A stretch of DNA of 64,000 nucleotides. Source: a virus. Taxonomy: Duplodnaviria; Heunggongvirae; Uroviricota; Caudoviricetes. The first letter of the stretch is position 1, and each line of letters begins with the position of its first letter. This document shows, in pieces, positions 4,032 to 62,676 of the stretch. Position numbers and translations under genes: made by a program. The stretch covers positions 1 to 64,000 of the IMG/VR virus record IMGVR_UViG_3300021256_000003, one strand, 5' to 3'. Below the pieces are notes generated by a model. It was given only the letters and a program-made list of their open reading frames with translations, did no database searches and was not told the DNA's origin.

Positions 4032-4430
4032 GGGGATGACGTGGTTTTGACAGTAATTACAGAAGTATATAAGCATGTAGACCTCAATACTAAGCAAGTC
4101 TTAAAACTACTGGTAAATAAATTTAATTGGCAATAGCCATCGTAACATCATCAGCCTCTATAACGAGAGAAAAGCTGCCTGACCTGAAGAACAGTAAGGA
4201 TCAAGGACCTAATTTTATTAAGAATAGTTATCGCTTAATATATTATTAGGTTTGATAAGGTTAAAGGATAATTTGCAATTGTAATCTATCCGAATTATAA
4301 TTAAAGATTAGGATGTAGTATAAATGAATTTTGTTAATTTGCTAGTTTATACGAAACACTAAAATTAACTAAACATGTAGAAAGTATATCATGAATTATT
4401 TGGACTCGGGTTCGACTCCCGACATCTCCA
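4032..4430 (+). ncRNA. ssrA: tmRNA (ssrA), phage-encoded
   Basis: 5' end GGGGATGACGTGGTTTTGACAG compared with E. coli GGGGCTGATTCTGGATTCGACGGG. 3' tRNA-like domain GGACTCGGGTTCGACTCCCGACATCTCCA compared with E. coli GGACGCGGGTTCAACTCCCGCCAGCTCCACCA. Acceptor GGGGATG/CATCTCC includes a G3:U70 wobble, which is the alanine identity element. An internal tag-like frame ...NIISLYNERKAA ends at TGA 4180-4182. Confidence 0.8.
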
Positions 4431-4451
4431 CTAATAAAAAAAATAAAAAAA

Positions 4452-11929: not shown

Positions 11930-12714
11930 TAGGAACTGATCCTGAATTGTTCCTTGTAAGTCAGAAAACAGGTAAAGTAAAATCAGCAGTACGAGTTATT
12001 CCTGGAACTAAAGAACATCCCCATAAGATTAAAGAATTTGGTGATGGATTTGCTGTACAGACTGATAATATTTTGGCAGAGTTTAATGTTCCGCCAGTTA
12101 ATTCCCAAGAAGCATTCGTTCATAATATTATGAGAATGCAACAACACATTAAAGAAATGGCACAAGCGAAGAATCCTGACTTAGATATTAAGTGTATGGC
12201 TAGTGCGCATGTACCGAAGAGCGAATTACGCAGCAAACAAGCAAAATTGTTTGGCTGTGATCCTGACTACAATATCTATACTGGTGAACAAAATGAAATA
12301 CAGCGTATTCCTGAGAGTGATTTACGTTCAGCTGGATTTCATTTGCATCTAGGATATAACAATAATAATATAGATAATTCAATGAATATATTGTTTTATC
12401 TTGACTTTTATTTAGGAGTTCCTAGTGTACTTATTGATCCCGATACTGAAAGAAGATCACTCTATGGTAAAGCTGGATGTTTCCGACTTACTTCTTATGG
12501 TCTTGAATATCGTAGTCTTTCATCATATATGATGAAAGATGAAAAACATTTAAGATGGATTTGGGATCAAACTATACAAGCAATACAGGCTTATAATCAT
12601 GGTGTAGCACTTCCTGAAGCTAGACATGTTGTTAATTGTATTAATAATAATGATCAAAAGTTAGCTCGAGATCTCTGCAAATATTATAAACTATGTGTGG
12701 ATTGTTTGGAATAG
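11896..12714 (+). CDS. carboxylate-amine ligase, GCS2 (YbdK-like) family
   Basis: N-terminal LIGTDPELFLV (GxExEFxLV-like) and AGFHLHLGY (GxHVHVG-like). Confidence 0.5.
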   Translation: MLKTHRITEFLIGTDPELFLVSQKTGKVKSAVRVIPGTKEHPHKIKEFGDGFAVQTDNILAEFNVPPVNSQEAFVHNIMRMQQHIKEMAQAKNPDLDIKCMASAHVPKSELRSKQAKLFGCDPDYNIYTGEQNEIQRIPESDLRSAGFHLHLGYNNNNIDNSMNILFYLDFYLGVPSVLIDPDTERRSLYGKAGCFRLTSYGLEYRSLSSYMMKDEKHLRWIWDQTIQAIQAYNHGVALPEARHVVNCINNNDQKLARDLCKYYKLCVDCLE

Positions 12715-13949
12715 TAAGTTCTTCTCCAAGAACTTTAGATTTAAGAGCGTTTTGTACGCTCGGTGTTATGAATGATTCTAGAGGAGGTGATTCTTGTGGT
12801 ATCTCTCTCGATGGTAATATTGAATATGGTTTTGGTAAAGAAAGTGCTCTTTTTATCGATTTTATGAGAGTTTCCAAAACATTATTTAAACGGAATCGAA
12901 TCAAAGTAGCATTAGGACATTGTCGTAAAGCTTCTGTCGGAGGAGTTACCCTAGAGAAAGCACAGCCAGTTAAAGTCTTTGATAAAGATGGAAATCTTAG
13001 TATGATCGTTATTCATAATGGAACTATTCATAATTATCAAGACTTAGCCGATAGGTATCTTCCTGGAGAAGATATTTCTGATTTATCTGATTCTCAAGTT
13101 ATGGCTCGGATTTTTCAGAAAGGTCATTATTCGGTGTTGAAAGAATATCGAGGTGGTGGAGCTTTTGTTATTCATGACTTAAAGAAAAATACTGTTTATC
13201 TGTTTAAAGGAGCATCTAAAGCTACTGAATATGCTAAAGAAATTACTGAAGAAAGACCTCTTTTCTGTTGCTATGATAAAGATGCTTTTATTTTTAGTTC
13301 TTTAGCGTATCCATTAGTTGGATTATATCCTAAGAACAAAATCTATCGTATTCCTTGTAATACTCTTTATAAAGTTCATAATGGTAGACTTGTTAAACTT
13401 GAGGTTTTAGATAGGTCTGAATGTTTGCAAAGTAAACCTACAGTTGTAACTGTTAATTCTTATTCTGGCTTCTATCAAGACAGATATATTGATTTTAATG
13501 TTAAAACTGGACGTTATAAGTTAGGAAAGAATTATCTTACCGGAGAACAATTCTTTTCTGACTATGGATATCATTATGATATAAAGAGTCAATGGGCTAA
13601 TTCTTATTGGTTCTGGGGAGGATATATGCTTCCTGGACAGAAATCTTATGAAGCTGTACTTAAATATAGTACAGAGTGCAAGGATCCTCAAAAGGCATTA
13701 CAACTTGCAAAAGCATTAACTTATCTTCCATTTGATGAAAAGGGGTGCTGGATGGAATCCTATGAAGATGGTTCTTTTCATGTTGTAAAAGACAATAAGG
13801 TATCATTTCCTTTGAGTAGGAACGAACTGCATATTAAGAATGGTAGAGCTGTTATGACTTCATATTTGAGTACAATGGATGCTACTGTTTTTAATGATTT
13901 ATCTGATGATATGATTCAAAAAATTGTAAACAATGTATGCCGTAAATGA
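12693..13949 (+). CDS. class II (Ntn) glutamine amidotransferase domain protein
   Basis: N-terminal MCGLFG nucleophile and NDSRGGDSCG, corresponding to HRGPDxxG. Confidence 0.65.
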   Translation: MCGLFGIVSSSPRTLDLRAFCTLGVMNDSRGGDSCGISLDGNIEYGFGKESALFIDFMRVSKTLFKRNRIKVALGHCRKASVGGVTLEKAQPVKVFDKDGNLSMIVIHNGTIHNYQDLADRYLPGEDISDLSDSQVMARIFQKGHYSVLKEYRGGGAFVIHDLKKNTVYLFKGASKATEYAKEITEERPLFCCYDKDAFIFSSLAYPLVGLYPKNKIYRIPCNTLYKVHNGRLVKLEVLDRSECLQSKPTVVTVNSYSGFYQDRYIDFNVKTGRYKLGKNYLTGEQFFSDYGYHYDIKSQWANSYWFWGGYMLPGQKSYEAVLKYSTECKDPQKALQLAKALTYLPFDEKGCWMESYEDGSFHVVKDNKVSFPLSRNELHIKNGRAVMTSYLSTMDATVFNDLSDDMIQKIVNNVCRK

Positions 13950-15141
13950 ACTTACAAGAAGATTTGAAGATTATTCAAGTTTAGTTAGATGTGCTGTGGC
14001 ATATGAGAATGGTATTATAGAATTTGGCTACGTTAATCCGAAAGAGAACTTATGTGTGTATTGCTATGATGATCATGGAAAGTTTTTAGCTAGATATAAT
14101 TCTTTAAAAGACTGTTTGAACTTTAATAGAGAATATGGTATATATACTTTTGATAAGGTTCCTAATGCAAACATTTATGCTGCTGGAAATTTTCCATATA
14201 CTTTTACTAAATACTATAATACTCGATTTTTGAGTGATACTTTTCAGAAATGGCAAGAAAATTACCATAGCATTCAGTTTAAATATGCTGACGAAATGCC
14301 TTATACTTTTGGGTTAGAATTTGAGACTAGTGGAGGATATATTCCAGAGCATGAACTATTTAATTTAGGATTAATTCCTTTAAGAGACGGTTCTATTAGA
14401 GGTCTTGAATATTCTACAATTGTATTAAAGGGGCAACAAGGATTAAACACTCTATACGAAATGACTAAATGTTTGCGTAAATATACAATCTTTGATAAAG
14501 AGTGTTCGTTACACATTCATTTAGGCAATTGGAAACTTGATGAATCTACTATTTTAAAGCTGAATAATTTATTTAGTTCAGCTTCTTTAGGACAATATCT
14601 CCCAAGAGATACTTATAATACTGAACGATATAAAGCAACTGGTAAGAGCTATTGTAAGAAGAATGCTAGCTACAGTACTTTTAATGATTTGTATCGTTCT
14701 TTAGTAGGTAGATCTTATTATGGAGATCTGTATCAACCTCATCCTGATGATACTAATGGAACTAGAAAATGGAATATTCATTCAAGATATAAGGCATTGA
14801 ATCTTATAAATGCTTTATGTTACAATTTTGGTAAAACTGCAGAATTTAGAATATTGAGGCCGACTTATAATTTTGATAAAATTATTTGTTGGTTATATGT
14901 TTTCGCTGCGTTTATCAAATATGCCGAAAATGGATATCGAGTGACTACTTCTGTTGATAAGATTCTTGAAAGAGTTTACTCTCCAGAACTTGCTACTATT
15001 CTTAAACAGTTCTTAAAATTAGAACAAGAGGTAGTAGATAAGCAAACAAATAACGGAGACTATATTGGTGCAGATATTTCATTAGAAGACTCAATTATCA
15101 CTAAAGAGAACTTATCTCCTGATAACAATTTCTTCTATTAA
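13933..15141 (+). CDS. hypothetical protein, co-operonic with the amidotransferase/ligase genes
   Basis: 402 aa ORF whose start overlaps the upstream gene. Confidence 0.5.
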   Translation: MYAVNELTRRFEDYSSLVRCAVAYENGIIEFGYVNPKENLCVYCYDDHGKFLARYNSLKDCLNFNREYGIYTFDKVPNANIYAAGNFPYTFTKYYNTRFLSDTFQKWQENYHSIQFKYADEMPYTFGLEFETSGGYIPEHELFNLGLIPLRDGSIRGLEYSTIVLKGQQGLNTLYEMTKCLRKYTIFDKECSLHIHLGNWKLDESTILKLNNLFSSASLGQYLPRDTYNTERYKATGKSYCKKNASYSTFNDLYRSLVGRSYYGDLYQPHPDDTNGTRKWNIHSRYKALNLINALCYNFGKTAEFRILRPTYNFDKIICWLYVFAAFIKYAENGYRVTTSVDKILERVYSPELATILKQFLKLEQEVVDKQTNNGDYIGADISLEDSIITKENLSPDNNFFY

Positions 15142-34841: not shown

Positions 34842-35932
34842 TTCACGAATCTCTACTAAGACAAATTGATCGAGGACGAGAGAAAAAGAATCAAGGTATT
34901 TCTACTGGATTACCAAAAGTCGATTCAATCACTGATGGAGTAATGCAAGGCACTAATACATTAGTGTTTTCTAATTCTGGAAGTGGTAAAACTTCATATG
35001 CTATCTTTTCTTATATTTACATGCCATTAGTTAAACATCTTGATGATGATAAGTTTAAAGTGATTTACTTTTCACTTGAAATGACCGCAGAAATGTTAAT
35101 GGCGAAACTTTTAGCTATACATCTGTATTATGAATATAATATAGAAGTGTCAGTTAAAGAACTATTATCTCGAAAGAAAGGTTATATATTATCTGATGAT
35201 ATATATGACTTAGTAAAACAGAGTGAAGAATGGATGAAAAAAGTGGAAAAACATTTATTCATCTATGATAAAAATGTAAATGCCGATACGATTTATGCAA
35301 TTACTATGCAGCAGTTAGAGAAATATGGAAAATTCTCTGAAACTGAAAATAAACATGTCTATACTCCATATGATCCTGATAGAATAGTTTTAGGTGTAGT
35401 AGATCATGTTAGTCTTGAAACTCCAGCTAAGGGACGTACATTAAAAGAAGAAATTGATTTAACTTCTAAGTATGGTGTTAGCTTGAGAAATAGAACTAAT
35501 ATGAGTTGGCTCTATATTCAACAAACTAATAGGGACCAAGGTAATATAGAACGTTTTAAAGCTAATAAATCAGCATTTACATTGAATGATACTAAGGATA
35601 GTGGGAATATCGTGCAAGATTGTGAAGTTGTAATAGCAATTTACAATCCTTTTAGGGATGGTCTTAAACGATATAATAAATATGATGTTGAACAACTTAA
35701 TAATTGTTTTAGAAGTTTACTAATCTTAAAGAATAGATATGGTGAATCTGAAGTAGAAATTCCTGTAGTATTTTTTGGAAAGAATAATATTTGGTATGAA
35801 TTACCTCGAAGCGAAGAAATCTATGATTATGGATATTATTCAAGTTCCTTAAATTTATTACAATCTGAAGAAATTAGATCTGAAGAGAAATCTAAGATGA
35901 ATAATACTTCTAACTTAAACTTTACTATATAA
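34838..35932 (+). CDS. DnaB-like replicative helicase (RecA-fold C-terminal domain)
   Basis: GLPKVDSITDGVMQGTNTLVFSNSGSGKTSYAIFS resembles the DnaB G..LD....G....DL.I.A.RP.MGKT pattern. Confidence 0.6.
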   Translation: MIHESLLRQIDRGREKKNQGISTGLPKVDSITDGVMQGTNTLVFSNSGSGKTSYAIFSYIYMPLVKHLDDDKFKVIYFSLEMTAEMLMAKLLAIHLYYEYNIEVSVKELLSRKKGYILSDDIYDLVKQSEEWMKKVEKHLFIYDKNVNADTIYAITMQQLEKYGKFSETENKHVYTPYDPDRIVLGVVDHVSLETPAKGRTLKEEIDLTSKYGVSLRNRTNMSWLYIQQTNRDQGNIERFKANKSAFTLNDTKDSGNIVQDCEVVIAIYNPFRDGLKRYNKYDVEQLNNCFRSLLILKNRYGESEVEIPVVFFGKNNIWYELPRSEEIYDYGYYSSSLNLLQSEEIRSEEKSKMNNTSNLNFTI

Positions 35933-35933
35933 T

Positions 35934-36410
35934 ATGGCTGAAATGCTTGCTATAGTTGGCGAGAGTGGATCCGGTAAGTCAACTAGTATTCGTAATTTGG
36001 ATCCTCAATCTACTTTCATCATCTCCACTACTGGTAAACGTCCTGGTATTAAAGGAGCAGTGAAGAAATATCCTGCTTTCGTTAAAACTAAGGATGGATA
36101 TACTGGTAACTTCTATACTACAGCTAATGTAGATAATATAGAAACTGTCTTAAAATATATCAATTCAAAGCGACCTGATATTAAAGTTGTAATTATTGAT
36201 GATTATCAATATGTAATGGCTTTTGAGGCGATGGACAAAGCCGATCAGAAAGGGTATGATAAATTTACACTTATGGCTCAACACGCTTATCAAGTATTAA
36301 AGAGTGCTATGAGTATGAGAGACGATTTATACGTTGTTATTATGACTCATAGTGAGAATACTGGTGATAGAATCAATCCTTACTACAAAATTAAAACTCT
36401 TGGTAAATAA
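35934..36410 (+). CDS. P-loop ATPase (AAA_24/Sak4-like size), probable exon 1 of an intron-split gene
   Basis: Walker A GESGSGKST and Walker B VVIIDDY. Ends immediately before a structured GC-rich region and the GIY-YIG ORF. Confidence 0.55.
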   Translation: MAEMLAIVGESGSGKSTSIRNLDPQSTFIISTTGKRPGIKGAVKKYPAFVKTKDGYTGNFYTTANVDNIETVLKYINSKRPDIKVVIIDDYQYVMAFEAMDKADQKGYDKFTLMAQHAYQVLKSAMSMRDDLYVVIMTHSENTGDRINPYYKIKTLGK

Positions 36411-37550
36411 TATTTGCCTGTATAACCCCTAATTCGGCGAAACCTAAAACAGTTATGTCATGGCAATGCCGAGCCAAGCAGTTATTAAGTTTAATATTTA
36501 ATAACGGGCGCGTGTAACGACTAGTTCCGGATCGGGAACGTAGGAATTAAATTTATTATTTAATTTCGAAATGGGGATGTAAATTCTTTATAAAATATTT
36601 TGGATGTAAATTTTATATACATATAATTAGATGTCTTAAAAATTTAATTATATGAAAATTATTATTTACTCATTAAGTTCTACTAGAAATCCTAATAATA
36701 TTAGGTATGTAGGAAAATCTAAACAACAATTAAACAGAAGATTAAATCAACACTTAAGTGCGGCTAGAAGAGCTAAAAAGTCTAATTATAAGTATAACTA
36801 TAATTATAATTGGATTAATAAAGAGCTCGATGAAGGATATGAAATTCTGATTGAAGAACTCGATTCTCTTGAATTTGGTGAATACGATGACTGGAAATGG
36901 TTTGAACAGTTTTGGATTTGCCAAATGAAAGTATGGGGATTTCGATTAACTAATCTTACTGATGGTGGAGATGGTAATCAGAATCAACATTTTTCCAAAG
37001 AATCCTTAGAAAGGAAAGCAGCAAAATTAAGAGGACGACCTAGAGATGAAATTACTAAACAAAAAATTTCAGAAAGTCATAAAGGAAAAGTTTTATCTGA
37101 TGATACTAAGCAAAAAGTTTCAGAGGCTATTAAACTTATTCAAGGAAGAAAAATAAAACAATTTGACTTAGAAGGTAATTTCATTCGTGAATGGGACTCA
37201 ATTGTTGATGCAGCACAAGCTTTAAATATTGACAAAGCAAATATAGGGCACTGCTGTAGACATACTATAAATCATAACAGTGCAGGAGGTTATATTTGGA
37301 GATATAAAGACGATATTACTCCAATTATAAAATTTACTTCTAATAGTATTTGTGTTTTAAACTTAAATAAGGAGTTAGTTAAAATATTTAAAACTGCTAA
37401 AGAAGCTTCTGTAGAGTTAAATGTTAGTACTACAAGTATATCTAATTGTTGTAACCACAAAATAGAAAATGTAAAAGGATACATTTTCATTAAATATAAA
37501 GAATTTATGAATACATAGTCTACACCTATATGAAAATATAGGATTATGTG
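36402..37550 (+). mobile_element. probable group I intron carrying a GIY-YIG homing endonuclease ORF
   Basis: R-like element GTAACGACTAG (36513-36523) is complementary to S-like CATAGTC (37514-37520), which forms P7. A GC-rich hairpin GTTCCGGATCGGGAAC follows R. A P9-like CCTATAT-GAAA-ATATAGG GNRA hairpin (37525-37542) precedes G 37541 or G 37550 as candidate omega-G. The 5' exon can end after T 36401 or T 36404. Confidence 0.5.
36652..37518 (+). CDS. GIY-YIG homing endonuclease with NUMOD/IENR-type DNA-binding repeats
   Basis: IIYSL...IRYVGKS...RRLNQH is the GIY-YIG motif. Two C-terminal repeats of the ...A..L.......I..CC.H...GYI..YK type are present. Confidence 0.8.
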   Translation: MKIIIYSLSSTRNPNNIRYVGKSKQQLNRRLNQHLSAARRAKKSNYKYNYNYNWINKELDEGYEILIEELDSLEFGEYDDWKWFEQFWICQMKVWGFRLTNLTDGGDGNQNQHFSKESLERKAAKLRGRPRDEITKQKISESHKGKVLSDDTKQKVSEAIKLIQGRKIKQFDLEGNFIREWDSIVDAAQALNIDKANIGHCCRHTINHNSAGGYIWRYKDDITPIIKFTSNSICVLNLNKELVKIFKTAKEASVELNVSTTSISNCCNHKIENVKGYIFIKYKEFMNT

Positions 37551-37772
37551 AAAATGATTGATTCAACAATCACGTTGGAAGGCTTATTTACTTATGTATT
37601 GTTCACGGCTATACTCCGTGACGATGATGGTAATCCATCCTATAAGTTTATGACCAACAGTGATGGCACAAATACCGGTAAGAGTCCTATGGGACTTTTT
37701 AACGAGCTTTATATTGATAATGATTTGAAGATGGTAATAGATAGAATAAATGAATATAATAGCGAAGACTAA
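37548..37772 (+). CDS. probable exon 2 (C-terminal 74 aa) of the split P-loop ATPase
   Basis: The ORF track starts it at GTG and there is no independent ATG or Shine-Dalgarno context. It is in frame with exon 1 when the intron is removed. Confidence 0.45.
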   Translation: MKMIDSTITLEGLFTYVLFTAILRDDDGNPSYKFMTNSDGTNTGKSPMGLFNELYIDNDLKMVIDRINEYNSED

Positions 37773-38347
37773 TGAAACTTGACATCTTGTTCCATTATGA
37801 TGTAAATCCCACAACTGGTGAAATTACATTCATAGGTAAAGAAGAGATTACTGTAGATACTAGTAAGAAGACTAGTACAACTAAAGCATCGACTAGTACT
37901 GCAAAAGAAGTTTTGGGAGGAGATACTCCCAAACTAGTTCTTGAAGATAGTAAGTATCTGATTAATCCTGCTGCTGCATCTGCATTAGGTGTTGAAGCAG
38001 GTGATACTATTCATATTCATTACCGCAAACACGGTGATACTATGGTACCTTCAATTGGTAAATCTGAGCGACTTGGAGTTAAAAGTGGTAATAAACTTAC
38101 TAAAACTTTGACTGTCTCTTATAGAGGTGCAGCTAATACTAAGTTATCTGAATATGGCACAGAATTTACCTTTGAACCTACAGATAAAGATGGAATTTTC
38201 TATCTTGTAGGAGATCGTTCTATAATACCTAGTGTAGAAGATCTGGATGCTGTAGAAATTAACGATGATATTGAATTAGATTCCTTAGAAGATTTAGATC
38301 TTGATAATAGTTCCACCGATATTAACGGTTTGGACTTAACATTCTAA
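37772..38347 (+). CDS. hypothetical protein with acidic C-terminal tail
   Basis: Ends ...LEDLDLDNSSTDINGLDLTF. Possible ssDNA-binding or recombination mediator, but weak. Confidence 0.4.
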   Translation: MKLDILFHYDVNPTTGEITFIGKEEITVDTSKKTSTTKASTSTAKEVLGGDTPKLVLEDSKYLINPAAASALGVEAGDTIHIHYRKHGDTMVPSIGKSERLGVKSGNKLTKTLTVSYRGAANTKLSEYGTEFTFEPTDKDGIFYLVGDRSIIPSVEDLDAVEINDDIELDSLEDLDLDNSSTDINGLDLTF

Positions 38348-38358
38348 TTTAAATTAAT

Positions 38359-39027
38359 ATGGAATTAAGTTTTTCTTTATCTGATCAATCTGCTGTAAGA
38401 ACCACACGTCAATTTACTCCTTTTGAAATTCACACTGTAAAGTTTGCAGGAGCTGAAATTAAAGAGGTTGGTAAAGAAACTAAATATAAAATTCTTTCTA
38501 TAAACTTTGAGAATGAGACTGGTATCGCTAACATGTCTATTTTCTGGCCAACTGAAGCCGATACTGTTCGTCCTGTAGCTACTGCAAAGGATGGCCATGA
38601 GTATGAACGTGCTTCTAGATGGGAAAATACTAAGGCTGTTATTGCTCAGACTCTTCAAGTTTTAAATCCTGAAGGTTATCTAAAATTCCAAGCCGTAAGT
38701 AGCAAATTTAAGAATTTTGACGATATGGCTAACGCCTTTGTTAAAGTTGTTAATGTTGCAAAAGGTAAGGAAACTAACGTTAAGTTTACTGGATATGTAA
38801 ACAAACAAGGTTATACTCAGTTATCTTTTCCAACAATCGTAGGTATTAATAGACAAGGCGAAAGTTTCATTTCCGATAACTATATTGGAGATGTAGTCCT
38901 TTCTACCTATGAAATGCAGAAAGCTAAAGAATTTGGCGCTCCTAAGCCAACTCCTATGGAAGGTGATGAGAAACAAGATACTCCTCAAGATGAGAGTTCA
39001 TTCGATTTGGAAGATCTTGGACTTTAA
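38359..39027 (+). CDS. hypothetical protein with acidic C-terminal tail (possible SSB-like)
   Basis: Ends ...DTPQDESSFDLEDLGL, resembling SSB acidic tails. Lies in the replication module. Confidence 0.4.
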   Translation: MELSFSLSDQSAVRTTRQFTPFEIHTVKFAGAEIKEVGKETKYKILSINFENETGIANMSIFWPTEADTVRPVATAKDGHEYERASRWENTKAVIAQTLQVLNPEGYLKFQAVSSKFKNFDDMANAFVKVVNVAKGKETNVKFTGYVNKQGYTQLSFPTIVGINRQGESFISDNYIGDVVLSTYEMQKAKEFGAPKPTPMEGDEKQDTPQDESSFDLEDLGL

Positions 39028-45141: not shown

Positions 45142-47340
45142 ATGACTAATTACATTAAAGTACGAAAACGTAATGGGATTTTAGAACCTTTTAATGGTTC
45201 TAAAATTACAAAGGCTATAACAGCTGCGTTCAAAACAACGAAAGAGCCTTATGATGAGGAAAAGTTAGCAATGTTCGTAGACTCTACGATAGCAACAATT
45301 CAGTCCTCCGAAAACAGTGAAATTGATATAGAAGTTATTCAGAACATGGTAGAAAATTGGCTAATGCAAAATAAGTATTATAAAACTGCTAAAGCCTATA
45401 TTTTATACCGCGCCGATCATAAAAGACTTAGAGATTTCGCTCAAAAGAAGATTGATTTTATAACAAATTACATTCAATCAGATAATACAGCAAACGCTAC
45501 AATCGATGATAATTCTAATGTCAGTAATCATAATATTGCGGTGTTAAATTCAGAAATTCATAAATCTGAGAATCAGAGTATAAATTTTCGTATTTTGGAG
45601 AATCAACTTAGAAAATTATATCCTGATTTTAACTACAAGCAGTTACTGATAGATTTAAATACTATAGGCTATTTGCACGATTCTTCTAGTCAAATAGGTA
45701 TGCCCTATTGTGTAGCTATTAGTATGTATCCGTTCTTAACTCGCGGTTTAAAAGATTTAGGAGGACTAAGTGCTAAACCTGAAAGTATTGACAGTTTCTG
45801 TGGAATATTTTGTAACTTAATATTTCTTATTTCTAGTCAATATAAAGGAGCAATAGCCGTTCCTGGCCTACTTTTGTGCATGGATTATTTCTTAAGAAAA
45901 GCTTGGGGTGACGACTATTATCTAAAACTTCAAGAAAATATTAATTCTAGTATATGCACAAAACCTAATACTGTAGAACACCAAATTCATCAGTATTTTC
46001 AGCAAATTTGTTATACACTGATGCAACCTAGCGGCGGAAGAGGAAATCAATCCGTATTTTGGAATATATCAATCTTTGATAAGCCTTTCTATGATACAAT
46101 GTACGGAGACTTTTTATTTCCAGATATGACTAAGCCACAATGGGAATCTTTCAACTGGTTGCAAAAAGACTTTTTACATTGGCTAAATCAGGAAAGGTTG
46201 AAAACCATACTCACCTTTCCAGTCGTATCTTTATGTCTCATCTACCAAGATGGAAAGTTTTTGGATGAAGAATTGTATGAATTTGCTTGCCAAGAATATG
46301 CCGAGGGTAATAGTTTCTTTACTTATATAAGTGACAGTGCTGATAGTCTAAGTAGTTGTTGTAGACTTTCTTCTAAAATAGAAAAGCCCCAGTTTAATTT
46401 CACAAATGGTCAATTAAGCGAAATGACTGGTTCTAAAAATGTTATAACACTTGATTTTAACAGAATTGTCCAAGATTGGTTTAAAACCATTCCTGATTAT
46501 CACGACCATTTAAATACTGAAGGAAGATGTCAAGCTCCTAAAGAATATGTGATAGACTGGTTAAAAACTAGTTTTAAACCTTACTTAATTAGCATTTTAG
46601 ATAGAATATATAAATACCAAACTGCGTATAATAGCTGTTTAGAAGAACTTCAAAAATCTGGAATGCTACCTACTTATGACGCCGGATTCATTAATATGAA
46701 GAAGCAATATCTTACAATAGGTATAAATGGTTTAAATCAAATGGCAGAATTTCTAGGATTTGAATGTAATAAAAACCCTTATTACGAGCAACTTTGTAAT
46801 CTGGTCTTTACTACTATTAAAGAACAGAACCAATTACATAAAACTAAGGATCTTATGTTCAACACAGAATTCACACCATGCGAGTCAGCAGCAATTAAAC
46901 TCTATAATCGGGATAAACAAGATGGTTATTGGGTCCCTACTGATACAAATCTTTATGCTAGTTATATTTATAAACCTAACGATCCAAATATAAGCATTTT
47001 TGATAAAATTTATCTACACGGAAGAAATTTCTGTGGTGATAATCTCGACGGTGGAAGTTCAGCGCATTTAAATTTAGCTGAGCATCTTTCTAAAGAACAG
47101 TATAGGAAAATTCTTACTTATGCTGCAGAGGTCGGATGTAAGTATTTCACTTTCAATGTACCTAATAGTGAGTGTGATAACTGTGGATTTATTACTAAAG
47201 TGCCGATAACTAAATGCCCTAAGTGTGGTAGTTTTGAAATTAGTTATTATGATCGCGTAATAGGATATTTAACACGAATAAAAAATTGGTCAGCAGGTAG
47301 ACGTATTGAACAAAAAACTAGAATTTATGGAACTGTATGA
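45142..47340 (+). CDS. nrdD: anaerobic ribonucleoside-triphosphate reductase (class III)
   Basis: C-terminal glycyl-radical motif RVIGYLTRIKNWSAGRRIEQKTR and Zn ribbon CDNCG...CPKCG. 732 aa, with an ATP-cone-like N-terminus. Confidence 0.85.
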   Translation: MTNYIKVRKRNGILEPFNGSKITKAITAAFKTTKEPYDEEKLAMFVDSTIATIQSSENSEIDIEVIQNMVENWLMQNKYYKTAKAYILYRADHKRLRDFAQKKIDFITNYIQSDNTANATIDDNSNVSNHNIAVLNSEIHKSENQSINFRILENQLRKLYPDFNYKQLLIDLNTIGYLHDSSSQIGMPYCVAISMYPFLTRGLKDLGGLSAKPESIDSFCGIFCNLIFLISSQYKGAIAVPGLLLCMDYFLRKAWGDDYYLKLQENINSSICTKPNTVEHQIHQYFQQICYTLMQPSGGRGNQSVFWNISIFDKPFYDTMYGDFLFPDMTKPQWESFNWLQKDFLHWLNQERLKTILTFPVVSLCLIYQDGKFLDEELYEFACQEYAEGNSFFTYISDSADSLSSCCRLSSKIEKPQFNFTNGQLSEMTGSKNVITLDFNRIVQDWFKTIPDYHDHLNTEGRCQAPKEYVIDWLKTSFKPYLISILDRIYKYQTAYNSCLEELQKSGMLPTYDAGFINMKKQYLTIGINGLNQMAEFLGFECNKNPYYEQLCNLVFTTIKEQNQLHKTKDLMFNTEFTPCESAAIKLYNRDKQDGYWVPTDTNLYASYIYKPNDPNISIFDKIYLHGRNFCGDNLDGGSSAHLNLAEHLSKEQYRKILTYAAEVGCKYFTFNVPNSECDNCGFITKVPITKCPKCGSFEISYYDRVIGYLTRIKNWSAGRRIEQKTRIYGTV

Positions 47341-47593
47341 TTTTTATGCAGATTGGTGTGGAATGTGCCGTACTATGATGCCAATAGTAGATGATTTCCA
47401 AAAACAGCATCCTGAAGTAAATCTTATTAAAATTAATGTTGACGATGAGCCTGAATTAGCTGAGAAATATAATGTAAGCCATCTTCCAACATTTGTATTC
47501 AGCGATGGAACAAAAGTACTGTATAAGTGTAATAGAATGCTTAGTTCTGAGGATTTGGAGGAAATTTATCAAAAATCTTTAAAGAAGTGCTAA
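47306..47593 (+). CDS. thioredoxin/glutaredoxin-like redox protein
   Basis: WCGMC active site within an approximately 95 aa thioredoxin fold. Confidence 0.65.
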   Translation: MNKKLEFMELYDFYADWCGMCRTMMPIVDDFQKQHPEVNLIKINVDDEPELAEKYNVSHLPTFVFSDGTKVLYKCNRMLSSEDLEEIYQKSLKKC

Positions 47594-48054
47594 AGTTTCT
47601 TAATACAGAAATTGTTTTTAGAGAGATCCCTGATGAGATTTCTTTAGCAATTAATCTGACAAACTGTCCTCTCCGTTGCCAAGGCTGTCATTCTCCATGG
47701 CTTAGAGAAGACATAGGAAAAGAATTGACTGATGAAATATTATTAGAGTTAATTAAACAGTCGTCAGGAATTACTTGTGTTCTTTTTTTAGGAGGAGATA
47801 GTTCCTATGAAGATATTAGAAGATTTGCTAAAATAATAAAAAATACAGGGCTTAAAGTAGCTTGGTATTCGGGACAAACTATAATTCATACTTCTGATTT
47901 AGAATTTTTTGACTATATAAAGATTGGTCCTTATGAAAAAAAACTTGGAGGCTTGGATAAAATTACTACTAATCAACGGTTGTTTAAAGTAATTAACTCT
48001 AAGTACGATTTACAAGATATTACATTTAAATTCCAACAACACTTATATCAGTGA
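47587..48054 (+). CDS. nrdG: anaerobic RNR activating protein (radical SAM)
   Basis: CPLRCQGCHSPW is a CxxxCxxC radical SAM motif. Immediately follows the nrdD candidate. Confidence 0.8.
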   Translation: MLKFLNTEIVFREIPDEISLAINLTNCPLRCQGCHSPWLREDIGKELTDEILLELIKQSSGITCVLFLGGDSSYEDIRRFAKIIKNTGLKVAWYSGQTIIHTSDLEFFDYIKIGPYEKKLGGLDKITTNQRLFKVINSKYDLQDITFKFQQHLYQ

Positions 48055-51928: not shown

Positions 51929-52180
51929 ATGGGTACTGATACATTTCAACGCATGATTGATGAGCTTAAAGCTCTTCACGAGAAATTAGAGAAACTTCGT
52001 TCATTCATTGACGATAAAGAAAAGTTTGAGAAACTTGATTTTCTCAATAGAGATCTTTTAATTACTCAGTTTAAGGCTATGGAGACTTATTTAAGTGTTC
52101 TATCGATTAGAATCGGATTAAATGCTCCTAAACAAGATAAGCCCGTTGAAGAGTCAGCTGAAAATACTTCTAACGATTGA
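51929..52180 (+). CDS. hypothetical coiled-coil protein
   Basis: 83 aa ORF. Confidence 0.4.
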   Translation: MGTDTFQRMIDELKALHEKLEKLRSFIDDKEKFEKLDFLNRDLLITQFKAMETYLSVLSIRIGLNAPKQDKPVEESAENTSND

Positions 52181-53022
52181 AAAAATCTGAAGAATCCGAA
52201 CAAGACAATTCAGTATTTTCGTTATATATAAAGGATATTAAAAAATATCCTATATTATCAGCGGATGAAATATCTAAATTGATTGTCAAAGCGCAAGCTG
52301 GAGATTTACAAGCTAGAAACAGAGTAATTGAATCTAACTTGCGCTTTGTTATTTCTATTGCTAAAAAGTTTCAGGGAAGAGGACTTCCTCTTATGGACTT
52401 AATTAGTGAAGGTAATTTAGGTGTAGCTTATGCAATAAATAAGTATAAACCTGAGTTAGGTATTCCATTTATTGCCTATGCTTCGTGGTGGATTAGACAA
52501 TATATTAATCAAGCGATATATTGGACAGGACGTGAAATTCGATTGCCTGTATCTCAACATTTAAAAATTATTACTATTCTTAAATGTCGTAAAACTTATC
52601 TACAACAGAATGGACAATGGCCTACTACTACTGAAGTGTCTATGCTAACAGATATACCAGAAGATCAGATTGATTTTTTAATGATGCATCTTTCTAAATC
52701 AATTTCTGTCGACTCTTATGTTGGAGATGATGAAGAAAATAGTCAAGTATGTGATATTATCCCTGATGAAAATGCACGTCCTTTGGAAGAATTAGTAGAC
52801 GACACTATTAAACGTAAAGAAATTCTTGAATCTTTTGATTTATTACCAATAAGAGAACGAGATGTTTTATCTATGCTATATGGTATAGGTAGAACTCAAA
52901 TTGATAATAAACAAATTGCAAGGATGTATGGAGTTGGTATAGAAAGAGTTAGACAAATTAAAGAAGCAGCTATTGAAAAGTTAAAGATTATTGCATCTAA
53001 TAAATTATCTAAATTATTATGA
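52177..53022 (+). CDS. RNA polymerase sigma-70 family factor (regions 2-4)
   Basis: NLRFVISIAKKF...DLISEGNLGV...YASWWIRQYINQAI (region 2), IRLPVSQH (region 3) and IARMYGVGIERVRQIKEAAIEKLK (region 4). Confidence 0.85.
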   Translation: MKKSEESEQDNSVFSLYIKDIKKYPILSADEISKLIVKAQAGDLQARNRVIESNLRFVISIAKKFQGRGLPLMDLISEGNLGVAYAINKYKPELGIPFIAYASWWIRQYINQAIYWTGREIRLPVSQHLKIITILKCRKTYLQQNGQWPTTTEVSMLTDIPEDQIDFLMMHLSKSISVDSYVGDDEENSQVCDIIPDENARPLEELVDDTIKRKEILESFDLLPIRERDVLSMLYGIGRTQIDNKQIARMYGVGIERVRQIKEAAIEKLKIIASNKLSKLL

Positions 53023-56815: not shown

Positions 56816-59800
56816 TTAATTTTCTCTCATTGATTGTAAGATGGGTTTAACTGTTCTGACCGCAGCCATATTTTCAGAAGTTGCATTTAATAATGTTTTC
56901 TCTCCTGTAAATACATCAAATCCATCTTCAATAACATTTCTAAGAGCACCAAAAGAATATGGTCTCCATTCAATTAATGGCTCACCAATAGAATTTATAA
57001 AATTAAAGTCTTGGAATGAACGTGTAATAGTTTGATTAATAAAATGAGAAGATACATAACTAATTGCATTACCCATATCTCCTTTATCTTTATTAAATTC
57101 CTTCTTTTCATCATCATCCCATTTTCCTAATAACAATGCTACTAAATGTCCAACAACTAACCACATAAACATATCTATTGCTAAATGCTTTAAGTTAGAA
57201 CGATAACAGGTTCGTAGATTATCGTTAGGATTATTCCATAATTCTTGCCAAGCTTCTTGATATCCATTTTCTTTAACAGAATCATAGAAGTGAGCTAGAG
57301 TTAATAAAATACCTTCTTGATGCTGTCCTTCCCAACGCCGTACTTTAACGCCACTACAATTAGGGTCATCAATAGTTACAAATCCTTTACTTAAATCAAT
57401 TTCTCCATTTTCATCTTTGGTATAATATAACTACTAACCATTCTCCTAATAATCCACAAATCTTCCTAATAATTTAGAACCACCAGGAGCAAGATATTGA
57501 TTCTTTTTAGCTGACCAATATGTTTTCATCTACATGTATAATCCGCCTAAAAACATATAATGTACAAGTGATTTATCTTCTTTATTATAATAACCATATA
57601 CATTATCGGCAATAGACTTCATACTTTGAGATTCTCTATTAGAATATGCTCTAGGTAAATCATCTCCAAGTTTAAATAAACTACCATCAGGATTTACTAC
57701 ACCTTCGTTAATAAACTCTTTTGCAGCAGCAAAATAACGAGCATAAGATTCACGTTCCTGCTCATTAAATTGACTTAAAGATTTGCCTTGCTTTTTGGCT
57801 TGGACATAATCTTTATAACGAGCATCTTTAGAGAAATCGTATATTAACTCACCATTATCATTTAAAGTATGAGCTTCAAAGGAACCATCACGTCTCATCT
57901 ATGCTTCAAAGATAGTCATTCGATTATAGTAATCAGGACGGGATGTAAAACGAAATGCTAAGTCATATACATGAGTAAACCATCCTTTGTCTGACGATAG
58001 TCTGTTTGCATACTAATCGGCGTCCATATCATTAATACCATATAACTCATTAATTCTTGACAATACAGTAGGAGTTAAATGACTGTGGAAAAGTTCAGTT
58101 TCAACATGTTTAGCAGAATCCCACATATGTTTAGATGTAAATGCATCAGTTCCATCTGGTTTCTTAATAATAAGACCTAAATTTTTCCAAATACCATCAA
58201 CTCTCTAATATGTCCATTGAACAGGGCTAAATCCTAATGCCAGCAAAGAGGCTACTGATCTGGCTCTACCAGTCAATCGCATTAATTTAGATATTTTATC
58301 ATCAGATAAGTTTTGATTGTGTACTTGTACTTTAACAATATTATCAAGATAATCAAGAGTATCTTTAAAGTTCTCTTTATCAGTAGGATTTATAAAGTTA
58401 CCTTGGTGAGCAATTGCAATTGCACACGCTTTCATTTTAATCAATTCAGAATCAAAAGCATTCTTTCTAGCATACTAATAAGAATGATTTAAGAGTAATG
58501 TTTCAAGATTATGCTCATAAGCATTAGCTCCATATTTACGAAGCATTCTCATTCGAGTAGTTTCATCGTTTCCAGCATCAAATACTACAGATGCTTTATA
58601 AATATCATTATTAGTTTGTTGTGTTTCTGCATCTGTAGATGCTATAAAATCCATAGTATTAGATAGGGCATTTTTAGGAGCTAAATTCTAAACTAATGTT
58701 TTTAATGAACCTAAAAGATTGTCAGTCTTTAATTTAGAACCAGTCGATGCAGCTAGTAAAGGAACTCGATAATATCTTCTATCACCAGAATTTTTCCACA
58801 TTTCTAAGTTAGCAGCATCCTTTGGCCATCTATCTCTGTTTATAGTATCAAGAACATACTCTAAGAACTTCTTTTTAACTCCTGTTAAAGTATTAGGATT
58901 AACAAAAACAAAATCTCCATCAGGAGTTACTTCTGTCATATCCATATATAAACTAGTTTGATTACTTAAGTACTCCTATACAGTATTAAACCCAACAGAT
59001 TCTTTTAATTCTTTTACATATTTATTTACTGTATAACTTTGTTTTAGAATAATATCTCTTACTTTCTAGTTTACATTTTTAACACTCACAGATACAGTAT
59101 TAAGCAGCTATGAACTAAAGTTACCAGGATTTTCAAGATTTAAACCTTCAGCACCTTCACGAAGAATTCTTCTAAACGTCTATAACCATTTGTCAGAATC
59201 TTTAGTTTGTTGTCTCATAATAACTCCATTAATGTCATTATAGGCAACAGCTGCTTGATTATATAATTGGATAATAGGATCAGCTAAAGAATTACTATCA
59301 CGAGCTACATTAATAGTTCTATTTGGGTAGAGTCTATTAATTGTCTACATTATATCCTCTAACTCACTTTTTATTTTTAAAGGATTTGTTTCTCCAGCCC
59401 AATCAAATCCTGCGCTTGTTAATTCTTTTTTAATTAAATTATATTCAGGAGCACCACTATTCATAATTTCATTTATTTTTAAACGAAAATAATCAAGTTG
59501 ACTTAATAACTTAATTTTACCAGAATTAAATTTATCTTCTTCAAGAAGACTATGTTTAATTAGAGCATTCCAGTTATATAAATATTCTGAATTATAAATA
59601 GGCATTAGTCTTTGAGTAGAAGGATTTAAAACATTAATACTTTCAAATTGAGGTGTTCCTGCCCAATCTAAATTATTAAGAACAAGCATAGCCTCCATTC
59701 CTTCAATATTGCCTCTATTGGCTTTTAAGATTAAAGAGTTAGCATTAGAAGACTCCTCAATATCTTTAGCAAATGATCCATTTATATTAGTTCTACCTTC

Positions 59801-61618
59801 AGAAAATTTATAATTGTAATGTAAATCTCCGTTTACAATTTTAAATGCGACACAAGCTTTAGTTTGAATATTTTGTAAAACAACTATTCCGAAGTTTTTT
59901 GCAGTAGGCAGATCAATCACTTCGTAATTACCTTTACAATAAGGCTTCATTAGGTTTTCTAGATTTGCTTTATCAAATCCAGAATCTTTAAATGAAGCAT
60001 ATCGATATTCAAATGGTTGCCCTGACTTTACTGCTTCGTTAAAACTATCAATAAACGCATCAACTCTTTGGACATTTCTATCATTTATAGAACGTAACTA
60101 TTCCTAGACCTTTTGTACTAACTAAACTTTAGCAAAGTCTAAATTATTATTTATCGGAATAACAATTGGATCGTCGCTATAAGGTGTTTTATATTCTAAA
60201 GTTCCTAAAGCAGTGGGCTCAAAAGCTTTTTCTTCTTTTAATTTTTCACTAACCTACTCTTCTGACATATTTCTATCAGTTAAATGGTTAGGAAACCAAA
60301 TAGCCATTTGTTTAGTGACTTTTTCAATTAAATTAGAAGAAGTAGCAGAAACTTTATTTTCTGCGGGTATAAATTTATCAAGAGTATCATTAATATTTTC
60401 AGAATTAACTTCTGTTAATACCTATTGGATAACAGGGCTATCTTCAGATAAATCATTCTGTTTATAAGATAGACCGTCATAAGTATAACTTAATTTTTCT
60501 GGATCAGTTTCACCAGTATCGTTTAAATGAAATCCCTTTAATGTAATAGGCACAATAATACATTGTCCACCTTGAGTATTAACTCCAAATTTTCTTAGAA
60601 TACGTTGATAAGTACCAAGCTATAAAGTAAATGCACGTTTCTTTGCAGAGTTATATTGGTCGTAGCTTTTTGGTGAAGTTTTATAGTCGACAATGTGTAC
60701 ATATCCATTTTCATCAACAACTAATAAGTCAATTACACCGTGTAAAGTATGACATCCTTTATACTCATTAATATCGCCAGCAATATCTAGTTCAGGAAAG
60801 AATCTAGCTTTCGCTCCGAATTTCTGCTGTAGATTTACACGAAAATCCTACAACATTTTAACCATTTCTAAAAACTAGGATTCACTAATAAGATCCCCTT
60901 TCTTTATAGAATGGTCATAAATACTTAAAGGATCAGATTTCCAACGTTCATATTGAAGTCTAGCATAATCTGGATTAGCAGATTCCTCTTCAAAAACATA
61001 TTTATCTCCATTTTTAGAAAATAACCATTCAGATACAGAGTGTAAGGCTGTACCTATCTAACCTTGTTGTTTCCATTTTCTTTCAATTACATCTTTCCAT
61101 TTATTGTATGTCTCATCAGAATATGTTTGTTCTGGATTTAGAGTAGTTCCAGGATCGCTTATAGCTAGATATTCATTAATAATTTGAATTTCGTCTTCAG
61201 TAAATGTTCCGGGATTAATTGTACCAGAGACTGTACGAGGTTTCCAAGCATCAAGTCTTCTATTCCAATATTCTTCACCTCTAAATTCAGGAGTAATTAC
61301 ACTACCATCTTCAGTACGGAATGCAGCGATAAATGCATTAACACCCATCACAGGAGGTTTCTCTTCAATATTCATAGTACCGTCATCAGCATATTCGACA
61401 GTGCGATTTTCATAATATTGTCTACTTTCTTCTTTAGCTCTTTTACCAGCTTCAGTAACAGCGCCTTGAATTAAAGATACATTAGTTGCTCCTGTAGCAT
61501 TCATTTCAAAAACTACATCGCCTATCTATTCCATTAAAGGAAGCTTTTCACAGATAAAATCTGCTAATTGAACTTCGTTTCCTATTAAATTTCCTTTATA
61601 AGTATATGTACATTTCAT
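56816..61618 (-). CDS. very large late (virion/structural?) protein, about 1600 codons, translated with TAG as a sense codon
   Basis: Six track fragments (56816-57172, 57530-57898, 58205-58444, 58688-58945, 59345-59950, 61058-61504) all share one frame. Each checked break is TAG: 57530, 57899, 58013, 58205, 58688, 59345, 61058 and 61526. It terminates with TAA at 56816-56818. The upstream limit is TGA at 61646-61648, giving a candidate start at ATG 61618 or 61534. Confidence 0.55.
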
Positions 61619-62673: not shown

Positions 62674-62676
62674 TTA

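Follow-up and report, generated by a model that had tools for sequence, protein, structure and literature searches.

The td intron of bacteriophage T4 is a phage group I intron of the IA2 type that carries the gene for the GIY-YIG endonuclease I-TevI in a peripheral loop, possesses a stop codon shortly after the 5′ splice site and homes into intron-less alleles. IA2 introns in the DNA polymerase genes of the T7-like phages PhiI and W31 and of the cyanophage Pf-WMP3 consist of P1 and P3–P10, with no P2 (PMC3428280). Two extra hairpins in domain 7, P7.1 and P7.2, are a trait of the IA2 introns (PMC3428280; PMC4227781), their linkage by G-U-A being the signature of the group (PMC3428280), and IA2 introns have also been described with an extended P9 domain that includes P9.0, P9.1 and P9.2 (PMC4227781). 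Amongst gut phages, the crAss-like phages have group I introns, among them introns within ‘ATP_43b’, an AAA ATPase gene of the Delta group (Yutin et al. 2021, PMC7886860), and the Zeta group is intron-rich and stop-codon-recoded, with genomes of 145–192 kb; these introns were found through their endonuclease domains, and ribozyme structures and splice sites were not given (PMC7886860). In the ‘Jug’ jumbo gut phages, numerous group I introns interrupt essential genes, a GIY-YIG endonuclease being encoded in some, and as metatranscriptomes confirm splicing for 37 of the 76 predicted introns, predictions of this kind are usually functional (PMC12880540).

The window analyzed here is a 64,000-nucleotide stretch of a tailed phage genome (IMGVR_UViG_3300021256_000003), in which an ATPase gene, part of a large gut phage's replication module, is very probably interrupted by a mobile group I intron of the IA2 type (Table 1). 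Like the T4 td intron, it pairs an IA2-type ribozyme with a GIY-YIG endonuclease in a peripheral loop; the position of the ORF (P8 in the window) and the host gene differ, as does the DNA-binding part of the endonuclease, composed of NUMOD1 and an I-HmuI-like NUMOD, unlike that of I-TevI. With the introns of PhiI, W31 and Pf-WMP3 it shares the lack of P2, the P7.1–P7.2 pair joined by G-U-A, an endonuclease ORF that overlaps core elements and a host gene of phage replication, but those introns interrupt a DNA polymerase rather than a Sak4-like ATPase, encode an HNH rather than a GIY-YIG/NUMOD endonuclease, have an ORF that starts in P6a rather than lying in the P8 loop, and possess the P9.1 and P9.2 that are missing from the window copy (PMC3428280). 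The crAss-like phages (PMC7886860) and the window are alike in their gut metagenomic origin (contigs related to the window are 165–220 kb), replication block, genes for Thy1, dUTPase and ribonucleotide reductase outside that block, TAG recoding and introns in core replication genes, a likeness that is not a placement in the Crassvirales. The ‘Jug’ phages are, like the window, of a gut Bacteroidota type, but have genomes of 360–402 kb and introns mostly of ~206 nt without ORFs (PMC12880540).

The ATPase gene is distributed over two ORFs of identical frame, one of 158 aa (35934–36410) with a Walker A (GESGSGKS) and a Walker B (VVIIDD) motif, and one of 74 aa (37548–37772) with a GTG start. Exon 1 alone matched Pfam AAA_24 (4.5e-7, 30.3 bits; cut-off, 27), while the fused 230-aa product matched the Sak4-like phrog_2872 over profile positions 1–212 of 219 (1.3e-60). 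Both exons were covered in one piece by 172 phage records and by metagenomic proteins numbering in the thousands; among these uninterrupted homologues are many with a length of exactly 230 aa, which match the fusion over its full extent (100%) with identities reaching 95%, and GESGSGKS and VIIDD are conserved in their alignment. The preliminary description of this DNA had named homologues ending at about 158 aa as the result that would speak against an intron, and no such homologues were seen; its product of about 232 aa is corrected to 230 aa by the homologue alignment and by an intron-less allele. The protein is ~30% identical to a ‘Sak4-like’ protein of crAss001, and the most fitting name for the host gene is Sak4-like ssDNA-annealing ATPase (phrog_2872), with annealing a predicted function. 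The gene is conserved within the replication block, which in the window holds an SNF2-like helicase, DnaB, the AAA ATPase and a primase.

The splice junction (GGU|AAA...GUG|AAAAUG) was set using the uninterrupted 230-aa homologues and the intron-less DNA allele, with the 5′ splice site directly after U36404. The alignment to uninterrupted homologues is gapless across KTLG|KMIDS, and the gene is broken within K-T-x-G-K, a motif that does not vary among the ATPase homologues. The intron-less allele (L074; DNA ~90% identical) lines up with the two joined exons, their junction being exactly at GGT|AAR, the spliced or intron-less site being ...AAAACTYTNGGT|AARATGATTGAT..., and ligated exons would read ...CUUGGU|AAAAUGAUU... 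(36404 joined to 37551). Two further syntenic loci without the intron (L001 and L003) have the same neighbors, a DnaB-like helicase upstream and the same next gene downstream. Of the splice sites originally offered, T36404 and G37550 held, whereas T36401 and G37541 do not fit the homologues or L074 and would place an extra ‘DYV’ at a point at which every homologue has KTxGK[ML].

Table 1. Features of the interrupted ATPase locus. Coordinates are positions in the window.
Feature	Position	Strand	Sequence or pairing	Basis
Exon 1, Sak4-like ATPase	35934–36404	+	Codons 1–157, ending ...K-T-L-G	ORF list; Pfam AAA_24/AAA_22; alignment ending at GGT
Group I intron, IA2-like, 1,146 nt, without P2	36405–37550	+		RF00028 matches; ORF-less homologue above gathering; boundaries from L074, conserved in 20+ loci
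P1	36402–36418	+	GGUAAA 36402–36407 : UUUGCC 36413–36418	Sequence, homologues, unconstrained fold
P3, 5′ strand	36426–36429	+	CCCC, pairs 36573–36576	
P4 and P5	36433–36473	+	P4 36433–36439 : 36467–36473; P5 36442–36444 : 36462–36464; J4/5 and J5/4 A-rich	
P6 hairpin	36481–36505	+	GUUAUUAA : UUAAUAAC	
P7, 5′ strand	36519–36523	+	GACUA, pairs UAGUC 37516–37520	
P7.1, linker, P7.2	36524–36567	+	P7.1 36524–36528 : 36535–36539; GUA 36540–36542; P7.2 36543–36552 : 36558–36567	
P3, 3′ strand	36573–36576	+	GGGG, pairs 36426–36429	
P8, 5′ strand	36579–36592	+	GUAAAUUCUUUAUA, pairs 37495–37508 across a 902-nt loop with the endonuclease ORF	
GIY-YIG/NUMOD homing endonuclease gene (predicted), 288 aa	36652–37518	+	In P8 loop	Pfam domains; PHROG homing endonuclease; conserved residues
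P8 3′ strand, J8/7, P7 3′ strand	37495–37520	+	37495–37508; GAAUACA 37509–37515; UAGUC 37516–37520	Second RF00028 match
P9 hairpin, GNRA loop	37525–37542	+	CCUAUAU-GAAA-AUAUAGG	Sequence, fold, homologues
Terminal intron guanosine (omega G), 3′ splice site	37550	+	G before exon 2 in every homologous intron	Junction by L074
Exon 2, Sak4-like ATPase	37551–37772	+	Codons 158–230, KMIDSTITLEGLF...SED and stop	

The proposal of a group I intron splitting the ATPase gene is supported by the Rfam model RF00028, which matched on both sides of the ORF, over the 5′ half (36364–36589; 39 bits, E = 4e-8; below the gathering score of 50) and over J8/7–P7′–P9 (37508–37540; 14 bits, model positions 219–251), in addition to the uninterrupted homologues. 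In the window copy both the ORF and the P7.1/P7.2 insert interrupt the model; of the ORF-less homologues from the same site, one (L018) scored 59.3 bits over the full model and another (L016) 46.5 bits. When Rfam was run on the whole window (gathering and E ≤ 0.01) the intron was not listed, as the speed filters drop it unless a short stretch is given, and a scan of five loci missed their introns in the same manner. The features of the preliminary description were found in place (the 158-aa, 288-aa and 74-aa ORFs, GTAACGACTAG at 36514–36524, CATAGTC and the hairpin at 37525–37542), and its pairing of R- and S-like elements and its GNRA hairpin correspond to P7, the 5′ strand of which lies within the R-like element, and P9. 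The ‘GC-rich’ segment it described is so only against the stretch just downstream (16–19% GC); the ribozyme core (33–38%) resembles the exons (33–41%).

The helices P1, P3–P9 and P10 are present and P2 is absent. P1 contains a wobble pair where the 5′ splice site lies (U36404–G36416), its loop (UAAUA) contains the TAA (36408–36410) that ends the exon-1 ORF, and UUU 36413–36415 also pairs with the exon-2 AAA (37551–37553) as P10; together with the terminal G, these are group I hallmarks, and every homologous intron retains the U-G pair and terminal G. P1 was 100% paired in 14 homologues, with replacements of the G-U kind only; the P1 and P2 drawn by Rfam lie inside exon 1 and were rejected based on the junction. 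P3 is invariant save for one C-G to U-A compensation (L038) and occurs in both the Rfam alignment of L018 and the fold, and an alternative P3 (CCUA 36428–36431 : UAGG 36541–36544) was discarded, as the position of UAGG is not conserved and in homologues belongs to the linker and P7.2. The P4/P5 region agrees with the Rfam consensus (GCGGgAAAcC...AAuCCGCAGCCAAG), with a C-G to U-A compensation in P4 in 5 of 14 sequences and three pair types in P5. The closing pair of P6 varies between G-C, A-U, U-A and G-U, with a hairpin of differing sequence in 13 of 14, while P7 is invariant in all homologues and agrees with the consensus AGACUA/UAGUC. Compensatory changes affect four of the five P7.1 pairs, P7.2 is formed in all 14 homologues from different sequences, and the GUA linker is nearly invariant. 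The long-range P8 duplex (14 bp, −12.2 kcal/mol) has a 13-bp complement that was reached in only 7 of 2,000 shuffles, and in homologues that lack the ORF this position is taken by a short P8 hairpin. A GNRA-capped hairpin of differing sequence occurs at the P9 site in every homologue, in most cases followed by one further, P9.1-like hairpin, while the 3′ domain of the window intron is P9 alone, then 8 nt to the terminal G, both P9.1 and P9.2 being absent.

Across 14 distinct sequences, 97.2% of cells were paired (31–48% with the partners slid), and the observed score was reached by 0 of 500 shuffles, although P3 and P7 are almost invariant and contribute little covariation, P7 also having been fixed by the search pattern used for the homologues. 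Nine pairs in P3, P4, P5, P6 and P7.1 have two-sided (compensatory) changes, and P6, P7.1, P7.2, P8 and P9 are kept with different sequences in the homologues, with the P6 of L016 as the sole exception. This covariation supports the core helices P3–P8 with the P3/P7 pseudoknot. An unconstrained fold of the ORF-excised intron (−70.6 kcal/mol, z = −4.6) recovered P1, P3, P6, P7.1, P7.2, P8 and P9, with P4 in the centroid. The window intron thus has the P7.1–GUA–P7.2 trait of the IA2 introns and lacks their extended P9 domain, for which reason it is labeled IA2-like and not canonical IA2.

The endonuclease ORF, previously termed free-standing, has the GIY-YIG and NUMOD domains and the stop overlap claimed for it, but is located within the P8 loop. 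The P8 3′ strand, J8/7 and P7 3′ strand share sequence with the last eight codons and stop of the ORF, with the TAG (37516–37518) inside UAGUC and within CATAGTC (37514–37520). Pfam assigned GIY-YIG, NUMOD3, two NUMOD1 and an I-HmuI_NUMOD-like domain, of which the GIY-YIG match (PF01541) is marginal (22.8 bits; cut-off, 22.6) and covers half of the domain (residues 4–46). In an alignment of 12 homologues, down to 28% identity, Y6, Y19, G21, R30, E85 and N101 show no variation and H34 almost none, a set (Tyr, Tyr, Arg, His, Glu, Asn) that we take to map onto the catalytic residues of I-TevI. By its catalytic-domain residues, DNA-binding modules, intron location and presence/absence polymorphism, the product is a putative GIY-YIG homing endonuclease. 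It had no match in the PDB by phmmer, and thus no detectable sequence relation to the solved GIY-YIG enzymes, no record in an exact-sequence look-up and one distant match in a search of viral contigs. None of 20 additional ORFs in the window contained an endonuclease domain.

More than 20 metagenomic phage loci carry this intron at an identical codon boundary, each with GGU as the end of the 5′ exon and G as the last intron base. Lengths at this site range from 260 to 1,214 nt, including mini-introns without an endonuclease (260–390 nt) and endonuclease remnants (L060 and L014), alongside the three intron-less alleles (L074, L003 and L001). A metagenome search using GGCGCGTGTAWCGACTA returned 53 matches, about two thirds of them chance matches in GC-rich DNA. 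Megablast of 35000–39000 against a phage collection gave no match, nor did Rfam on positions 1–2760 of L006, where two further introns are suspected.

Based on these sequences, transcription would pass through the intron and the RNA would fold into the P3–P9 core, in which an external guanosine bound in P7 would attack after U36404 at the U-G wobble of P1. The 3′ exon AAA would then displace the intron AAA on the guide UUU, forming P10, and the freed end of exon 1 would attack after G37550 to give ...GGU|AAA AUG... and an mRNA for the 230-aa protein; in unspliced RNA, translation would stop at the TAA in the P1 loop. The endonuclease most likely cuts intron-less alleles during co-infection, with repair copying the intron in. 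Enzymes of the GIY-YIG kind typically cleave about 20–25 nt away from where their intron inserts.

The minimal 3′ domain may weaken splicing of the window copy. A stronger form of this idea, in which an intron without P2, P9.1 and P9.2 is decaying and splices so inefficiently that the ATPase gene amounts to a pseudogene or has low expression, could draw on the reduction to P9 where most homologues have an additional P9.1-like hairpin, and on the Rfam score under gathering. It is nonetheless improbable, as the core helices, J8/7, U-G pair, terminal G and P10 are all intact, both exons are free of frameshifts and stops and 95% identical to intact homologues, and the ATPase gene is conserved in the replication block. 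Further, the same minimal 3′ end occurs in L020, and L005 combines the 3′ end of the window with an only slightly different endonuclease ORF, indicating that the form persists in a population.

That a free-standing GIY-YIG gene was inserted between the ATPase halves with no functional intron, and that the halves are translated separately with the second initiated at GTG, is scarcely credible. In the second piece an ATG does come after an in-frame GTG (37548), and in related contigs gene callers give two separate ORFs (~157 aa and 72–75 aa), but a ribosome-binding context for the 74-aa piece is not recognizable and the break lies within the invariant ATPase motif. Moreover, the flanks of the endonuclease ORF are a conserved, covarying group I core, and ORF-less elements of 260–318 nt at the same site would make no sense as endonuclease insertions.

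The intron is well supported, but as a mobile element it is of an ordinary kind for such phages, recoded gut phages with many introns having already been described, and conceptually it adds nothing to the knowledge of phage group I introns. Its value lies in annotation, where three apparently unrelated ORFs from gene callers (~158, 288 and 74 aa) become one 230-aa Sak4-like recombination ATPase and a mobile intron with defined splice sites. The site also offers a natural series of the homing cycle in uncultured gut phages, from full endonuclease to remnant to a 260-nt mini-intron, and the compact P2-less IA2-like ribozymes are candidates for ribozyme work.

Elsewhere in the window are genes for Thy1, dUTPase and ribonucleotide reductase, as well as TAG-recoded genes, with minus-strand genes reading TAG as sense. 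One TAG-recoded product of 1,600 aa had weak PHROG matches, exonuclease-like only. Elsewhere in the window GATGTAAATTTT shows no enrichment and so is not a general promoter motif. It is conceivable, if unlikely, that the RNA, by changing its P8 pairing, alternates between a fold able to splice and one permitting endonuclease translation, and that TAG suppression late in infection carries ribosomes through P7 and lengthens the endonuclease; if true, splicing and homing would be coupled to the genetic-code switch of the phage. The 5′ strand of P8 is duplicated, with GAUGUAAAUU at 36576 and again at 36603 (36603–36612), an arrangement that is conserved and also present in L006 and L007.

The intervening sequence that splits the P-loop ATPase gene of the window (36405–37550) is a group I ribozyme. 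In the 5' piece of the gene (35934–36410; 158 aa, ending at TAA), Walker A (GESGSGKS) and Walker B (VVIIDD) are both intact and Pfam assigns AAA_24 and AAA_22, and a GTG-start ORF of 74 aa (37548–37772) lies in the same frame, both as in the preliminary description. The two pieces, joined between KTLG and KMIDS, were used as the query for homologue searches. At least 80% of this fusion was covered in one piece by 172 phage records, and most of the best 120 matches in a collection of 5.8 billion proteins were 230 aa long (range, 219–244) and covered at least 95% of it, with up to 95% identity; the homologues do not end naturally at ~158 aa. The fusion gave a full-length match to PHROG 2872 (‘Sak4-like ssDNA annealing protein’; 1.3e-60) and was ~30% identical to a protein annotated as Sak4-like in crAss001 and relatives. 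The alignment to homologues is gap-free at the junction, with K154, T155 and G157 invariant and K158 nearly invariant, which places the intron inside the most conserved motif of the region.

The ATPase gene is uninterrupted in two syntenic loci, L001 (MT836666) and L003, where, as in the window, the gene of a DnaB-like helicase lies upstream of it and that of a 191-aa protein downstream. An intron-less allele with ~90% identical DNA, L074, follows exon 1 collinearly as far as GGT and exon 2 from AAR ATG onwards. With AAA after each junction, the same mRNA would result from four cut positions; only one of these has a U preceding the 5' splice site and a G ending the intron, and the intron is thus assigned to 36405–37550 (1,146 nt) with a product of 230 aa. 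From the splice sites proposed earlier, the pair T36404/G37550 was retained, and the predicted product of ~232 aa was corrected to 230 aa; splicing from T36401 to G37541 was rejected, as it would add residues absent from every homologue. Three of the differences between the window and L074 fall close together, no more than 10 nt from the insertion site (window 36397–36404 and 37551–37556), which reads CTCTTGGT followed by AAAATG in the window and CTTTAGGT followed by AAGATG in L074 (GGA followed by CGC in L003). Co-conversion, or a target site that resists cleavage, could account for this clustering.

The Rfam group I intron model (RF00028), run on 36300–37700, matched 36364–36589 with 39 bits (E = 4e-8) and 37508–37540 with 14 bits (model positions 219–251; J8/7, P7 3' strand and P9), the alignment being broken in two by the endonuclease ORF. 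The window itself falls short of the gathering score (50), and the intron is unlisted in large Rfam searches, where the match was lost to filters. The ORF-less intron of L018 scored 59.3 bits across the whole model, above gathering, and that of L016 scored 46.5 bits. The R-like element GTAACGACTAG (36514–36524), the S-like element CATAGTC (37514–37520) and the hairpin CCTATAT-GAAA-ATATAGG (37525–37542) named in the preliminary description are all present, and the endonuclease stop (TAG, 37516–37518) does overlap the S-like element within the P7 3' strand. The segment had also been called GC-rich, which is true only relative to the following stretch of 16–19% GC, as the core has 33–38% GC, like the exons.

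Coordinates of the predicted ribozyme elements and of other features in the window
Feature	Position	Strand	Remark
P1	36402–36407 with 36413–36418	+	U36404-G36416 wobble; TAA stop in loop
P2			none in the window's intron
P3	36426–36429 with 36573–36576	+	
P4	36433–36439 with 36467–36473	+	
P5	36442–36444 with 36462–36464	+	
P6	36481–36488 with 36498–36505	+	
P7	36519–36523 with 37516–37520	+	
P7.1	36524–36528 with 36535–36539	+	
Linker GUA	36540–36542	+	
P7.2	36543–36552 with 36558–36567	+	
P8	36579–36592 with 37495–37508	+	endonuclease ORF in loop
J8/7	37509–37515	+	
P9	37525–37531 with 37536–37542	+	GAAA loop
Terminal G	37550	+	
P10	37551–37553 with 36413–36415	+	
Sigma-70-like factor, NrdD, radical-SAM activase, ThyX, dUTPase, DNA and RNA ligases, glutamine amidotransferase/amidoligase pair	52177–53022; 45142–48054; 12693–15141	+	positions given for the set jointly
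tmRNA; 11 tRNA genes	4032–4433; 2069–27142	+	tmRNA 96.5 bits, tag GNSHRNIISLYNERKAA

Fourteen distinct ORF-excised introns were aligned and pairs were counted in P1, P3, P4, P5, the base of P6, P7 and P7.1. Standard pairs occupied 97.2% of cells, compared to 31–48% with partners slid by 1–3 columns, nine pairs changed on both sides, and the covariation score was reached by none of 500 shuffles. P7 is invariant in the 14 sequences and was also fixed by one search pattern, making it uninformative either way; P1 varies only from A-U to G-U, and P3 shows a single compensatory change. When each inter-anchor segment was folded separately for the variable-length hairpins, P6, P7.1, P7.2, P8 and a GNRA-capped P9 formed with differing sequences in all 14 (except P6 of L016). 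The long-range P8 of the window, a 13-bp perfect complement over ~900 nt that was matched in 7 of 2000 shuffles, takes the exact place of the short P8 hairpin in ORF-less copies. With the ORF excised, the intron has a folding energy of −70.6 kcal/mol (z = −4.6); P1, P3, P6, P7.1, P7.2, P8 and P9 appear in the unconstrained fold, and the centroid also contains P4. Published phage introns with P7.1/P7.2 joined by G-U-A and no P2 were assigned to subgroup IA2 (PMC3428280), which is also listed with an extended P9 domain (PMC4227781); this domain is absent from the window's intron, which is therefore named IA2-like.

A direct repeat, GATGTAAATT(C/T)T, occurs at 36576–36587 and 36603–36614 (copies 27 nt apart). 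The first copy constitutes J3/8 and the P8 5' strand; the second, kept in L006 and L007, is pairable at 12 of 13 positions with the same P8 3' strand and could pair with it. The rest of the window shows no enrichment of the repeat, which is therefore no general promoter motif. Most homologues (L006, L014, L015, L016, L018, L036 and L063) have in common the P7.2 loop motif AGUAAUUAAUC, which may be a tertiary contact; the window has UUAUU (36553–36557) in its place.

The predicted endonuclease (36652–37518, 288 aa) has the expected Pfam GIY-YIG and NUMOD assignments (NUMOD3, NUMOD1 and I-HmuI-NUMOD-like domains), the GIY-YIG match being barely above cut-off, and numerous homologues (56–99% identity) on contigs up to 220 kb. 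In 12 homologues with identities as low as 28%, the residues Y6, Y19, G21, R30, E85 and N101 never vary and H34 is almost invariant, as expected of a GIY-YIG active site; we take these residues to correspond to residues of I-TevI. No related solved structure was detectable by sequence. The ORF starts 59 nt past the P8 5' strand, and its last eight codons and TAG stop supply the P8 3' strand and J8/7 as well as three bases at the start of the P7 3' strand. According to a review (PMC3984707), it is usual for ORFs in peripheral loops to reach into core sequence and for phage group I introns to encode GIY-YIG enzymes. On the 177.6-kb contig L006 the endonuclease was called through the TAG (3001–3897; 298 aa, ...KEFMNTQSDPAEMQLA), indicating that the gene caller applied an alternative code there; the same read-through in the window would append QSTPI, then TGA.

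Pattern searches recovered the same intron element in 8 viral and ~15 metagenomic loci, and look-ups of endonuclease homologues in further contigs of 18–178 kb; every locus with both ends located has a 5' exon ending in GGT, an intron ending in G and an exon 2 starting with AAA. Some copies lack the ORF (L038/L061, 260 nt; L018, 278 nt; L016/L017/L059, 292 nt), and others have shortened P8 loops (L060, 318 nt; L014/L029, 387 nt; L036, 542 nt). The last endonuclease codons (...AAATATAAAGAATTTAT; cf. window 37480–37508) are retained in L060 and L014/L029 since the P8 3' strand consists of them, direct evidence that the ORF was lost while the ribozyme was retained. There is little support for a simple insertion of an endonuclease gene between two separately translated ATPase halves, since ORF-less introns occupy the same site and the core covaries. 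The favoured explanation is a functional, mobile group I intron, which would splice by the standard two-step guanosine-initiated pathway and spread by endonuclease-mediated homing. The sequences demonstrate the split gene and its junction, a conserved covarying fold, intact motifs and polymorphism in both presence and ORF loss; catalysis and homing we infer. The minimal 3' domain would favour a splicing-impaired, decaying copy in the window, a reading that also has little support.

The window spans a phage replication and nucleotide-metabolism region encoding a DEAD/SNF2-type helicase, a DnaB-like helicase, the Sak4-like ATPase and a primase, together with NrdD, a radical-SAM activase, dUTPase and ThyX, DNA and RNA ligases and a glutamine amidotransferase/amidoligase pair; related contigs are 165–220 kb. 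The 11 tRNAs (Val, Glu, Leu, Cys, Lys, Ile, Thr, Asp, Phe, Trp and Arg) are all on the plus strand. Also encoded is a sigma-70-like factor that starts at TTG and contains regions 2, 3 and 4. Plus-strand replication genes need no recoding, and the minus-strand genes at 56.8–64 kb (56816–63999) are readable only with TAG as sense, which merges short ORFs (122–201 aa) into a frame of 1,609 codons (56816–61645, 24 in-frame TAG) and opens further minus-strand frames at 61615–62673 (10 TAG) and 62677–63999 (2 TAG). The phage apparently has TAG-recoded late genes, with TAG probably read as Gln; no suppressor tRNA was found in the window, and a PHROG search of the 1,609-codon product returned only a weak exonuclease-like match.

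The AAA ATPase gene ‘ATP_43b’ of crAss-like phages has been named among core genes with group I introns (PMC7886860), and in other gut jumbo phages the splicing of many predicted introns was confirmed by metatranscriptomes (PMC12880540). Sak4 was not found linked with an intron in this sense in the literature searched. The window matches published accounts of large gut phages with recoded stops and dense group I introns in core genes, making the finding a further, well-documented case of a known kind that would not surprise a specialist; its use lies in annotation and in the natural series of intron decay that it provides. On L006, two further R...S pairs (AACGACTAG ... GATATAGTCT at ~300–560 and AACGACTAG ... 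GAGATAGTCT at ~2040–2290) occur downstream of a LAGLIDADG ORF and a 343-aa GIY-YIG ORF, just upstream of the Sak4 intron; Rfam returned no match in this region, and the pairs are probably two more group I introns in the neighbouring gene or genes.
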